Below, in pieces: positions 2,733 to 58,179 of a stretch of 64,000 bases of DNA. The stretch comes from Candidatus Aminicenantes bacterium (GTDB lineage Bacteria > Acidobacteriota > Aminicenantia > Aminicenantales > JAFGBC01). The notes beneath the pieces were generated by a model. The model did no database searches. It was not told the origin of the DNA and saw only the letters and a list, made by a program, of their open reading frames with translations. A program made the translations under genes and the position numbers. Location of the stretch: contig OY969696.1 of the NCBI GenBank assembly GCA_963702005.1, positions 320,001 to 384,000 on the forward strand, read 5' to 3'. Every line of letters begins with the position of its first letter. Position 1 is the first letter of the stretch.

Positions 2733-2776
2733 CCCTCGTCCCCGCCGGCCTTATCTTAATGCGGATCCCCGAAGGA

Positions 2777-2859
2777 GTCAAACCCTCGACACCCATGCTA
2801 AGCCGTTTCCGGCTTAGCATGAGTACTGCAAGGCGGGGTAGCGTCGGTGAACGGGTCAA
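2777..2859 (-). mobile_element. 83-bp palindromic non-autonomous element, copy 1 (TTGAC-bounded, PATE/REP-like)
   Basis: 78/83 identical to 49045-49127; minus-strand CATGCTAAGCCG-GAAA-CGGCTTAGCATG hairpin; GTCAA at both ends on the + strand. Confidence 0.75.
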
Positions 2860-14322: not shown

Positions 14323-14399
14323 CGATCCTTACCTTAATAAAAAATAGGAAAAGCGGTTCAAAAGAACGGTTTCATACAATACTCAATTCGATGACAAAA

Positions 14400-14512
14400 G
14401 TCAAACCCTCATCTCCCCGGCATGAAAGCCGGGGCTTGATCAGGTTTAACCCTGAGCCGCACTTCTTGTCCCCGCCCTGAAGGACGGGGCTAAGCGTCGG
14501 CGAACGGGTCAA
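14400..14512 (-). mobile_element. 113-bp palindromic element, copy 3 (same termini, IS200/IS605-type hairpins inside)
   Basis: Shares GTCAAACCCTC and GCGTCGGCGAACGGGTCAA ends with copies 1 and 2; internal CCCCGGCATGAAAGCCGGGG and CCCCGCCCTGAAGGACGGGG hairpins. Confidence 0.72.
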
Positions 14513-14652
14513 TCCGCTGGGCCGTTCCGCCCCTGAAGAGCCTGGGGCTCACCCTAAGTCCCCACCTTTCAGGGGGGCTTAGGACACGGCCCTTATAGTT
14601 CAAGAGAATCCCCACTGGGGATTCCCTTGGCGTCGCTGCTGCGCGCCCGAGA

Positions 14653-18944: not shown

Positions 18945-19295
18945 TGGTGGAGGCGGCGGGAATTGAACCCGCGTCCGAAGACATTCAGCTCAAGGCCTCT
19001 ACATGCTTAGACCCTTCATTAATCTCGCGCCCGGGCGCCTGAAGGGACAAGGTACCCGACCGCCAGCCCCCGAGGGGGTTTTCGCTCGCCGGGCCCGGGG
19101 CGCGGCCCGTTTCGCTATCCTGCTTGTCCACGCCCCCGAGGTCCCGCAGGAGAGGGCCCCGGAGACGGCTAGCCTTTCCTTAGGCAGCGACTGCAACAGG
19201 TTCTGCAGTTAATTGTTTCCACCGGTTTAACGAGGTGGGTGGGACCTCGGCATGCGGCATTGGCCTCATTGTCTCCGTCGAATCCTTTCGCCCCC
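18945..19295 (-). ncRNA. ssrA: tmRNA
   Basis: 5' GGGGGCGAAAGGATTCGACGG; 3' GGACGCGGGTTCAATTCCCGCCGCCTCCACCA; tag ORF AEPVAVAA* at 19206-19180; upstream TTGACA-N18-TATAAT. Confidence 0.95.
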
Positions 19296-27399: not shown

Positions 27400-27477
27400 T
27401 GGCGGGGCCGACGAGACTTGAACTCGCGACCTCCGGCGTGACAGGCCGGCGTTCTAACCAAACTGAACTACGACCCC
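27400..27477 (-). tRNA. tRNA-Asp(GTC)
   Basis: GGGGTCGTAGTTCAGTTTGGTTAGAACGCCGGCCTGTCACGCCGGAGGTCGCGAGTTCAAGTCTCGTCGGCCCCGCCA. Confidence 0.97.
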
Positions 27478-39564: not shown

Positions 39565-39676
39565 ATAGTTATTGCGCGTGTGCTGCGGCCGGGCGGGTCG
39601 GCCGTAAGTATTAATTCATATTGACTTTTCATGAGAGGCGCGCTATTATTCAAAAAATTTTGATGCGAGGTTGTGT

Positions 39677-47404: not shown

Positions 47405-48148
47405 TCAAGCCCGGGCCAAGGTGATCGCCCGCACTTCGCCCGCCCCGGCCCCGAGAAGGGCCTTAGCACACTCTTTCAATGTCGCGCCGGTCGTACAGAC
47501 ATCGTCCACGAGGATAATCACGCCTCCCCGGATTCGCTCCGGATATTTGACATCGAAGATCCCCCGTACGTTCCGAGCCCGGTCGGCGGCCTCGAGCGTC
47601 GATTGGGGGGGTGCGTTCCTCGTCCGGATCAGGGCCTTTTCAAGGGATGGCACGCCGCACCTCCTTGCCAGCTCCCGCGTCAACAGAGCGGATTGGTTGA
47701 ATCCCCGCTCTCGTTCCCTTTTAGGATGAAGGGGAACGGGGACAAGGGCTTGGGCGCCCCACCACAGGTCTTCATCCTTGCGGAGGGCCGCAAAGGCCCG
47801 CTCGGCCAGAATCCCGGCTAGGACGGAGTAGCCCTGGAATTTATAAAGGAGGATGAGATCCTTCAAGACTCCCGCGTAGCGGCCGTACGACCTGTGGCGG
47901 GAAAAGGGCGGCGGCGACTCCAGACAGGAGGCGCAGTAGTGGGATTCTCCAGCGCCGTCGAAGAACGTCCCGCAGCACGGGCATGACGGGGACCGTTCGG
48001 GAATCAGTTTGGCCAGACAAGCGCCGCAGACGACCCGTTCGCCGGGAGTTTCGAGCCAGGCCTGGCAGACCCGGCAGCGGGAAGGATAAAGGGTCCGTCC
48101 GATCGTCGCGCCGGCCCGGGCGGCGATGCGCGTGAAGAATCCGGTCAA
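47405..48148 (-). CDS. ComF family (double Zn-ribbon phosphoribosyltransferase-like) protein
   Basis: Four CxxC pairs, PVPLH..R..ERGFNQS, LVDDV.TTGATL. Confidence 0.92.
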   Translation of the reverse strand: MTGFFTRIAARAGATIGRTLYPSRCRVCQAWLETPGERVVCGACLAKLIPERSPSCPCCGTFFDGAGESHYCASCLESPPPFSRHRSYGRYAGVLKDLILLYKFQGYSVLAGILAERAFAALRKDEDLWWGAQALVPVPLHPKRERERGFNQSALLTRELARRCGVPSLEKALIRTRNAPPQSTLEAADRARNVRGIFDVKYPERIRGGVIILVDDVCTTGATLKECAKALLGAGAGEVRAITLARA

Positions 48149-48511: not shown

Positions 48512-48979
48512 TCACTTGGCATAGGCCCGCCCTTGCAGAATGGTCAAGGAGCGATAGATCTGCTCCAGGAGGACGAGCCGGCACAGCTCATGGGAGAGCG
48601 TCATCCGGGAGAGGGAGAGCCGAAGGTCGGCCTTATCCAGAAGCCGTTCCGCCAATCCCAGGAATCCGCCCACGACGAAGGCGAGGGGACGGCCGGCAGA
48701 AGCCCCCCGCTGCTGGAGAAACCGGGCGAAATCCAGAGAACTCATTTCTCGTCCTTTGTCGATGAGGCAGATAATATAGTCATCTTTAATATGTTTTTCA
48801 AGCCCCTCCGCCTCGATCTTTTTTATCCGGTCGGCGGACCGTTCCGGGAGACCCCGCGCCTCCCGGGTGACGATGAGCCGACAGGGGGCCAGCCTGTTGA
48901 TCCGTTCGAGCCAGCTTTCTTCAAGTCGGCGGAATTCGCGGCTTTTGGTCTGTCCCGGCCAGAGGATTTTAAGCATCAT
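48512..48979 (-). CDS. rlmH: 23S rRNA (pseudouridine1915-N3)-methyltransferase
   Basis: FVVGG..G, LSLSRMTLSHELCRLVLLEQIYR..I..G..Y.K. Confidence 0.93.
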   Translation of the reverse strand: MMLKILWPGQTKSREFRRLEESWLERINRLAPCRLIVTREARGLPERSADRIKKIEAEGLEKHIKDDYIICLIDKGREMSSLDFARFLQQRGASAGRPLAFVVGGFLGLAERLLDKADLRLSLSRMTLSHELCRLVLLEQIYRSLTILQGRAYAK

Positions 48980-49044
48980 CCAGGCGTCTCCGCGTCCCAA
49001 GGACGGTTCGAAGTCCATCCACGATATCGATTCAGCTTCGAAAA

Positions 49045-49127
49045 GTCAACCCCTCGACACCCATACTAAGCCGTTTCCGGCTTAGTATGAGTACTGCAAA
49101 GCGGGGTAGCGTCGGCGAACGGGTCAA
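49045..49127 (-). mobile_element. 83-bp palindromic non-autonomous element, copy 2
   Basis: 78/83 identical to 2777-2859, with a compensatory G:C to A:T change in the stem. Confidence 0.75.
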
Positions 49128-52407: not shown

Positions 52408-52479
52408 GGGCGGTTAGCTCAGCGGTAGAGTATCGGTCTTACACACCGGGGGCCGCAGGTTCGAACCCTGCACCGCCCA
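52408..52479 (+). tRNA. tRNA-Val(TAC)
   Basis: GGGCGGTTAGCTCAGCGGTAGAGTATCGGTCTTACACACCGGGGGCCGCAGGTTCGAACCCTGCACCGCCCA; CCA not encoded. Confidence 0.94.
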
Positions 52480-57794: not shown

Positions 57795-58039
57795 GGCGCG
57801 GCGCCCCTCCTCTCTTGCTCGTCCTGGCTGTCCTCCTCTCCCTCCTGGGCGTCGGAGCCTTCATATATCTGTTCGCCCCGATCTTCAATATCTACTGGTT
57901 CATCCTGGCCCCGATCATCCTGGCCCTTTATCAGCTCCCGGCCGTCTATATGTTTCTCCTTTGGAAGAGACGGGCCCGGAACGCGGGCGAACGGAGCGAA
58001 CGGATCAAGAAGGAGAAGAACGCCCCCGACGGGATTTGA
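57791..58039 (+). CDS. Small two-TM membrane protein
   Basis: 82 aa, two hydrophobic helices and a basic tail; ATGA overlap with the HD-GYP gene. Confidence 0.6.
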   Translation: MRRGAPPLLLVLAVLLSLLGVGAFIYLFAPIFNIYWFILAPIILALYQLPAVYMFLLWKRRARNAGERSERIKKEKNAPDGI

Positions 58040-58095
58040 ACCCGTGTTGCCGCCGTGAAAGGGCGATGTCCTGGACCGGGCTAGACGACAGGGGC
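58021..58095 (-). tRNA. tRNA-Glu(TTC)
   Basis: GCCCCTGTCGTCTAGCCCGGTCCAGGACATCGCCCTTTCACGGCGGCAACACGGGTTCAAATCCCGTCGGGGGCG. Confidence 0.94.
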
Positions 58096-58107
58096 AGGGA
58101 AAGTCTT

Positions 58108-58179
58108 TGAGCCGTGCTGGACTCGAACCAGCGACACCCGGCTTAAAAGGCCGGTGCTCTCCCTCTGAGCTAACGGCCC
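58108..58179 (-). tRNA. tRNA-Lys(TTT)
   Basis: GGGCCGTTAGCTCAGAGGGAGAGCACCGGCCTTTTAAGCCGGGTGTCGCTGGTTCGAGTCCAGCACGGCTCA. Confidence 0.94.

Follow-up and report, generated by a model that had tools for sequence, protein, structure and literature searches.

A short mobile element is scattered through the genome from which the window was taken, where it inserts immediately 3' of a (T)TGAC pentamer, duplicates nothing, and brings a TTGAC of its own at its 3' end. TTGAC is the core of the sigma-70 -35 hexamer, and insertion into a -35 box therefore rebuilds the promoter core. The link to promoters is real, though not universal: about half of the copies lie at -35 boxes. At these positions it inserts into promoters that already exist rather than creating new ones. 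We think it probable that the element is IS200/IS605-like, that it is moved in trans by a Y1 HUH transposase, and that it rebuilds -35 boxes as it inserts.

The window, by which we mean the whole stretch of 64,000 nucleotides that was analysed, holds three copies of the element, and at all three the minus strand reads TTGAC-[element]-TTGACT-N17-(-10) (Table 1). The 19-mer TTGACCCGTTCRCCGACGC occurs three times in the window, against 0.05 occurrences by chance. Folded as single-stranded DNA, the three copies have z-scores between -3.2 and -3.8 (copy 1, -18.8 kcal/mol, z = -3.5; copy 2, -27.1 kcal/mol, z = -3.2), and terminal inverted repeats are absent from all of them. A scan with the promoter consensus found 9 of 12 matches at each of the three rebuilt sites, which are predicted to fire. 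The rebuilt site was the sole hit in the rlmH and rplM regions, and the MBL region contained one extra hit (2908-2879), upstream of the element; the displaced left TTGAC received no score in any of the three regions. Similar promoters free of the element, which the first-pass annotation had listed at 39621-39649 and on the minus strand at 439-411, are present as described. By Pfam, rlmH has RsfS (rsfS) upstream and a ComF-like gene downstream. A search of the whole window with Rfam at gathering thresholds returned no family at the element. Upstream of copy 2, at 14560-14600 on the minus strand, lies a separate hairpin, CCTAAG-CCCCCC-TGAAAGG-TGGGG-ACTTAGG, whose position is kept in the congener G001 and in G002; this hairpin may terminate transcription of the TPR gene that lies upstream.

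Table 1. Copies of the element, their flanks and neighbouring features. Positions are those of the window unless marked G000 (source genome).
Feature	Position	Strand	Remarks
Copy 1 body, 78 nt, 72-type	49045..49122	-	Left core CCGTTCGCCGACGC, single long hairpin, right end GTCGAGGGGTTGAC
Copy 1 left TTGAC, original target pentamer, displaced former -35 core	49123..49127	-	Flank sequence, outside the element
Promoter-like TTGACT-N17-TATCGT before rlmH	49021..49049	-	TTGAC is the element 3' end; TTGACT 49049-44, TATCGT 49026-21
rlmH ORF, SPOUT_MTase	48512-49018	-	Pfam
Copy 2 body, 108 nt, 100-type	14400..14507	-	Left core, hairpin 1, spacer, hairpin 2, right end GATGAGGGTTTGAC
Copy 2 left TTGAC, target pentamer	14508..14512	-	Single TTGAC in G001 and TCGAC in G002 at this site
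Promoter-like TTGACT-N17-TATTGT before rplM-rpsI	14376..14404	-	TTGACT 14404-399, TATTGT 14381-76; Pfam L13-S9
Copy 3 body, 78 nt, 72-type	2777..2854	-	Sequence reading and ssDNA folding
Copy 3 left TTGAC, target pentamer	2855..2859	-	Sequence reading and G001 comparison
Promoter-like TTGACT-N17-TAAGAT before MBL-fold hydrolase and XerD-like integrase	2753..2781	-	TTGACT 2781-76, TAAGAT 2758-53; Pfam Lactamase_B
Unoccupied TTGAC in G000	48144..48148 (genome 368144-368148)	-	G001 ortholog with 135-nt element copy
tmRNA and four tRNA genes	18945-19295 (-), 27403-27477 (-), 52408-52479 (+), 58021-58179 (-)		Rfam
IS110-in-module examples	G000 2353905 (+), 3585186 (-), 3157379 (-)		Sequence reading

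The source genome (G000) is closed and measures 4,309,361 bp at 60.4% G+C. Across it, the 19-mer left end has 140 matches at up to three mismatches and 128 at up to two. We delimited 110 copies by a rule that combines the core with at most one mismatch, the right 9-mer, and both pentamers within two mismatches of TTGAC; about 16 raw matches left out of this set are chance matches to the core within coding sequence. The constant parts are the left core and the right end, the latter with variants that follow the pattern GTCGA-N4-TTGAC, and the mini-hairpin formed by this pattern is the only constant hairpin. The region between the constant ends is modular and made up of variable, nested hairpin cassettes, and the element codes for no transposase. 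Copies range from about 60 to 390 nt, the largest being composites with cassettes nested inside hairpins, and the common insert sizes of 78, 107-108 and about 63-70 nt are matched by classes of element length that we call the 72-type, 100-type and 64-type. Hairpins lie near both ends of the 100-type, and the other two types have other or fewer hairpins; the 72-type carries another hairpin in place of the two of the 100-type, yet is multicopy (17 copies). Since the hairpins are not constant between subtypes, recognition would rest on the short linear ends, unlike in characterised IS200/IS605 elements. In five tandem cases in G000, neighbouring copies share one TTGAC. A second small hairpin element, AGCCTTGCAG.ACTCA-hairpin-TGAGTG, occurs genome-wide nested in the main element, whose CCCCGCC and CCCCGGC hairpins it enters behind CCC; this gives rise to the composites of up to about 390 nt. 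The 72-type resembles the product of a deletion between two nested copies of this second hairpin.

The two pentamers that flank the element behave differently. Immediately before the exact 14-nt core, the pentamer is TTGAC in 67 of 90 cases and a variant in the other 23 (e.g. ATGAC, CTGAC, GTCAC, TTAAC). Of the 30 delimited copies whose left pentamer is a variant, 23 carry TTGAC on the right, and in none does the left variant recur there. In a 615-kb sample of G001, where 68 copies were delimited from 92 core matches, TTGAC stands on the left of 49 copies and on the right of 64. A variable left pentamer beside a constant right TTGAC implies that the target is not duplicated, and the earlier proposal that target and right end are both TTGAC, with the right one owned by the element, is borne out by the 23 of 30 copies that end in TTGAC despite a variant target. 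The target logo reads T78, T98, G92, A98, C98 (in percent), with no conservation upstream of the pentamer. The base 3' of the element is T in 52% and A in 38% of copies; T follows 36 of 59 non-promoter copies, and just 15% of intergenic non-promoter TTGAC.

Empty orthologous sites with a single pentamer, which the first-pass annotation had expected of such an element, were found for window copies 2 and 3 (in G001) and for 15 G001 insertions (in G000). The rplM site in G001 (contig C81) reads CAGCGGG-TTGAC-TTTTGAAG, with the element exactly absent and the same -10 placed 17 nt from the single TTGAC; in G002 (contig C287) the element is likewise exactly absent and the pentamer is TCGAC. The MBL site in G001 (contig C457) reads GGCCAAG-TTGAC-TCCTTCGG, again with one TTGAC, the -10 kept and the element exactly absent. 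At the rlmH site, G001 is occupied by a different composite, and in G002 the intergenic region is missing altogether. Viewed from the other side, the 15 G001 insertions with near-abutting flanks in G000 each correspond to one pentamer there, which resembles the left one. Taken together, the empty sites and the asymmetry of the pentamers indicate that the element is mobile and inserts 3' of (T)TGAC without duplication, bringing its own TTGAC.

The empty pentamer in G000 is identical to the left pentamer of the G001 copy in four cases (CTTAC, ATGAC, and TTGAC twice), different in nine and unclear in two. A mismatch at 9 of 13 readable sites is more than the flanks suggest, and a separate comparison added another (ATGAC versus ATTAG). 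In five cases the mismatch is T for C at position 5. The empty-site pentamers include TTGAT for TTGAC (three times) as well as GTGAT, ATCAT and ATTAG, with immediate flanks that are 80-95% identical. Mutated targets may simply be immune.

We scored -10 boxes by a strict rule (TAnnnT at 16-18 nt) and by a lenient one (at least four of six matches, with A at position 2). The first-pass annotation had the element at a -35 box in three of three cases; this is correct for the window and does not extend to the genome, where a strict -10 accompanies 46 of 110 delimited copies and 43 of the 76 with TTGAC on both sides. In G001 the figure is 17 of 68. The same rule is satisfied by 579 of 9379 TTGAC in the whole genome, by 399 of 1692 intergenic TTGAC, and by 310 of the 716 TTGAC that lie 25-300 nt upstream of a co-oriented gene, the intergenic backgrounds being approximate because genes were called with a crude codon-usage caller. 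Enrichment at -35 positions over intergenic TTGAC, a check named in the first-pass annotation, holds after matching for the next base, with 43 of 71 copies against 24.7 expected (z = 4.7, a 1.7-fold excess). Occupancy tells the same story: promoter-like TTGAC[A/T] is occupied two to four times more than other intergenic sites (TTGACT, 16/88 versus 18/209; TTGACA, 26/283 versus 8/329). Under the lenient rule, 55 of 75 canonical-target copies have a -10, against 32.9 expected, and variant-target copies have one in only 2 of 30 cases, against 10.0 expected. Because a -10 is absent at most variant targets, it goes with a pre-existing TTGAC. Thus, the promoters predate the insertions.

The orientation of the element follows replication. 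Its top strand is co-oriented with replication in 90 of 110 copies, compared with 1678 of 3139 genes (53%; p = 6e-10), and the resident IS200 copies have equal polarity (9/11). This bias is similar in promoter-like (45/55), other canonical (21/25) and variant-target copies (24/30), and is thus a property of insertion itself. The GC skew reaches its minimum at 0.50 Mb, where dnaA lies (504 kb), and its maximum at 2.75 Mb. Between 2.50 and 2.68 Mb, two IS200 copies (2579953, 2614818) and five element copies run against the polarity expected if the terminus were at 2.75 Mb; the true end of replication may be closer to 2.5 Mb than the skew maximum implies. In the single-strand transposition of IS200/IS605, orientation is described as following replication (PMC5371812). 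ISDra2 is reported to target TTGAT, and TTGAC itself is listed as the predicted left cleavage site or TAM of a TnpB relative (PMC12415229). The variable left pentamer, the single-pentamer empty sites, the lack of inverted repeats and the orientation point to an IS200/IS605-like mechanism of the Y1 HUH, single-strand kind.

It had been suggested that a Y1 TnpA or RAYT gene flanked by the element's ends might be found. Y1_Tnp genes are indeed present in G000, as 11 IS200 copies and three RAYT-like genes, but none is bounded by these ends, and reading the flanks of Y1 genes in G000, G001, G002, G005, G013 and G025 revealed no element ends. As a parent we rejected the resident IS200 (11 copies with different ends and a different target), the three RAYT-like genes (each between its own palindromes, not the element), and the Y2_Tnp (IS91-like) gene, a 223-aa remnant with no element ends nearby. 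Pairing of left and right ends up to 5 kb apart in G000 returned just three composites, units of about 1.4 kb bounded by element ends that each enclose an IS110-family transposase of 376-386 aa. These IS110-family (DEDD) insertions start after ...ACTCATGG.TT.CATGAG, inside a small hairpin module for which copies of the TTGAC element are in turn the host. Because its start falls within such a nested module, the IS110 unit is a passenger. At the rlmH site of G001, the assembly is broken by this arrangement as well.

Among the RAYT-like genes, the presence of clades did not clearly track that of the element across five genomes (G013 carries clade B alone and G025 clade A alone), and the overlap between the clade-A palindrome and the tandem-copy junction of the element is limited to the 10-nt GGTTTGACCC. 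A 323-aa RAYT-like gene (G000 714331-714657 and flanks, minus strand) has a long palindrome in its flanks, GGGGTCAAACCTAC...GTAGGTTTGACCCC, and several IS200 copies (1259993, 2614818, 3781633, 2083742) lie in the loops of further palindromes of this kind. As an arm of the palindrome at this gene shares GGTTTGACCC with the tandem-copy junction, this RAYT is a candidate mobiliser. Its G001 ortholog is interrupted by a fragment of the element.

Based upon these observations, we propose that the element would move as single-stranded DNA, with a Y1 HUH transposase supplied in trans, and would integrate on the lagging-strand template, directly 3' of a (T)TGAC pentamer and with nothing duplicated. 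Insertion into a -35 box displaces the old box and the DNA upstream of it by the length of the element. The element's own TTGAC then lies 16-18 nt from the resident -10, so that the predicted promoter core is rebuilt, and the sole part to be replaced is the DNA upstream of the -35, now G-rich hairpin DNA. Insertions would be harmless, and hence retained, at -35 boxes and as in-frame insertions in coding sequence, and would be purged elsewhere. Of the variant-target copies, 19 of 30 have an insert whose length divides by three, compared with 29 of 80 canonical ones (Fisher p = 0.017), and this in-frame excess at variant targets shows that insertions pass a selective sieve. Four in-frame insertions, each of 105-108 nt, occur within coding sequences or at their starts (G000 3914165 (-), 645551 (+), 1893087 (+) and 2545344 (+)); one in-frame copy follows a ribosome-binding site and ATGAC, such that the original start is replaced by the TTG of the element. 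A called stop codon, formed by the TGA of NTGAC, immediately precedes seven variant-target copies.

Retention in a safe niche fits the promoter excess best, ahead of an active homing in which the machinery prefers TTGAC in real promoters, whether guided by melting of the local DNA, by supercoiling, by RNA polymerase or by sequence context over a wider stretch, and the excess is mechanistic rather than selective. Homing would agree with the two- to fourfold higher occupancy of promoter-like sites, and with the apparently equal age of promoter and other copies, whose divergence from the subfamily consensus does not differ (p = 0.61, 0.53, 0.14). It would also agree with a young, near-identical subfamily that has 12 of 21 copies at promoter-like sites, against 8.1 expected, and with the presence of different element variants at some promoters in G000 and G001. 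At three of the sites that are occupied in both species the module sets differ, perhaps through repeated hits. However, the flank logo is conserved nowhere outside the pentamer and the base that follows, and 30 of 110 copies lie at variant pentamers, which were never -35 boxes. Moreover, of the G001-only insertions with mappable empty sites just 1 of 20 passes the strict rule as promoter-like, and several disrupt genes. With the in-frame excess also speaking for selection, we consider homing unlikely to account for the promoter excess.

The ends of the element could in principle act on promoters in another way, if an outward -35 created new hybrid promoters and copies were kept because they switch genes on. 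The element does end in TTGAC, many copies have a well-spaced -10, and hybrid promoters that arise from an outward -35 in the ends of insertion sequences are described as well known (PMC9330008). Nonetheless, the empty sites already hold a promoter, with a TTGAC that has the same spacing to that -10, and the scarcity of -10 boxes at non-TTGAC targets (2 of 30) argues that the element neither lands beside free -10 boxes nor selects for them; promoter donation is hardly credible as the reason for the copies, and we rejected a hybrid-promoter-forming insertion sequence as a model. A different enzyme class is also very improbable. The TTGAC on both sides of most copies could be read as the 5-bp duplication of a DDE-derived miniature element, but matching pentamers flank 0 of 30 variant-target copies and the ends are not inverted repeats, and a DDE-derived MITE was rejected on these grounds. 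The three units that enclose an IS110-family transposase might instead suggest a derivative of that family, whose members are known as site-specific and are not known to make a duplication. Yet the IS110 unit begins within the nested module and not at the ends of the element, the composites that surround the three units differ, and the target is a mere 5-6 nt; in addition, the replication-linked orientation is that of the resident IS200 copies. We thus return to an IS200/IS605-like element, with copies retained mainly where they do no harm, as the reading that we favour.

It is possible, though we regard it as doubtful, that the target and the 3' end evolved as a -35 core, making promoters, including those of ribosomal protein operons, a heritable and self-renewing safe harbour, with homing partly true and cassettes that alter promoters. 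Each insertion would leave two fresh targets, so that promoters could collect, exchange and stack cassettes, and cassettes placed upstream of the -35 would change promoter strength or shield the promoter from upstream transcription. The host would then gain a pool of portable upstream-promoter modifiers.

Short derivatives of IS200/IS605 that lack a transposase (PATEs, palindrome-associated transposable elements) are known. The element resembles IS200/IS605 and PATEs in its insertion 3' of a fixed pentanucleotide without duplication, in its lack of terminal inverted repeats and, in the 100-type, in hairpins near both ends, and also in an orientation that follows replication (PMC5371812). It differs from IS200/IS605 in that no parent with these ends was found in the six genomes whose Y1 flanks were read, in that its subterminal structures are not fixed, the hairpins being interchangeable cassettes, and in that its target, its own 3' end and the -35 core are one and the same. 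As a result of this identity, promoter insertions keep the layout of the core and tandem arrays can form. An end that supplies a -35 to a flanking -10 is shared with hybrid-promoter insertion sequences and with Correia (CREE) elements, and the account in PMC9330008 has the Correia target resembling a -10, a choice that raises the chance of a working promoter. Whereas those elements create or strengthen promoters, the present one replaces an existing -35 at the same spacing.

Like REP/BIME and REPIN-RAYT systems, the element forms abundant extragenic, modular hairpin repeats for which a Y1 HUH enzyme is the presumed mobiliser. The RAYT-like genes here lie between other palindromes, unlike in REPIN-RAYT systems, and the ends of the element are polar rather than palindromic, with its point of insertion defined, unlike REP and REPIN sequences. 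Pneumococcal BOX elements may be comparable modular repeats, and Rickettsia palindromic elements insert in frame into genes, as do some copies here (in coding sequence or at start codons, e.g. 3914165), where they are a minority; to our knowledge, neither target specificity nor residence in promoters has been reported for the Rickettsia elements. In the literature that we covered, we found PATEs, hybrid promoters and the Correia precedent, but nothing on an element that has -35 boxes as its target and rebuilds them.

Mobile elements are commonly regarded as disrupting promoters or as donating new ones. This element represents a third mode, in which entry occurs at the -35 box with the core hexamers and their spacing untouched. 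Such preservation of the promoter core would explain how about 100 copies can be carried in a 4-Mb genome, ahead of essential operons. The natural pairs of promoters with and without some 80-390 nt of hairpin DNA abutting the -35 offer a gauge of the effect of upstream DNA. In addition, a clean single-strand-type signature without an identifiable transposase provides a lead to a Y1 enzyme (an IS200 TnpA or a RAYT) that moves short repeats in trans.

In a phylum-wide sample of 301 genomes, an exact 16-mer, a pattern that diverged relatives would escape, occurs only in G000, G005 and G013, apart from one single match. In the public collection, true copies among the matches listed come from Candidatus Aminicenantes records and one otherwise-titled record, and the matches listed are mostly single chance occurrences of the 16-mer in unrelated phyla. 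Within the order, the exact left core is present 80 times in G000 and 135 times in G001, is absent from G002 (83% complete), and is found 0-6 times in 28 other genomes. Three genomes from another family of the order (G005, G013 and G025) have the same element with slightly different right ends, and several of their copies lie at TTGACA-N17-TAnnnT.
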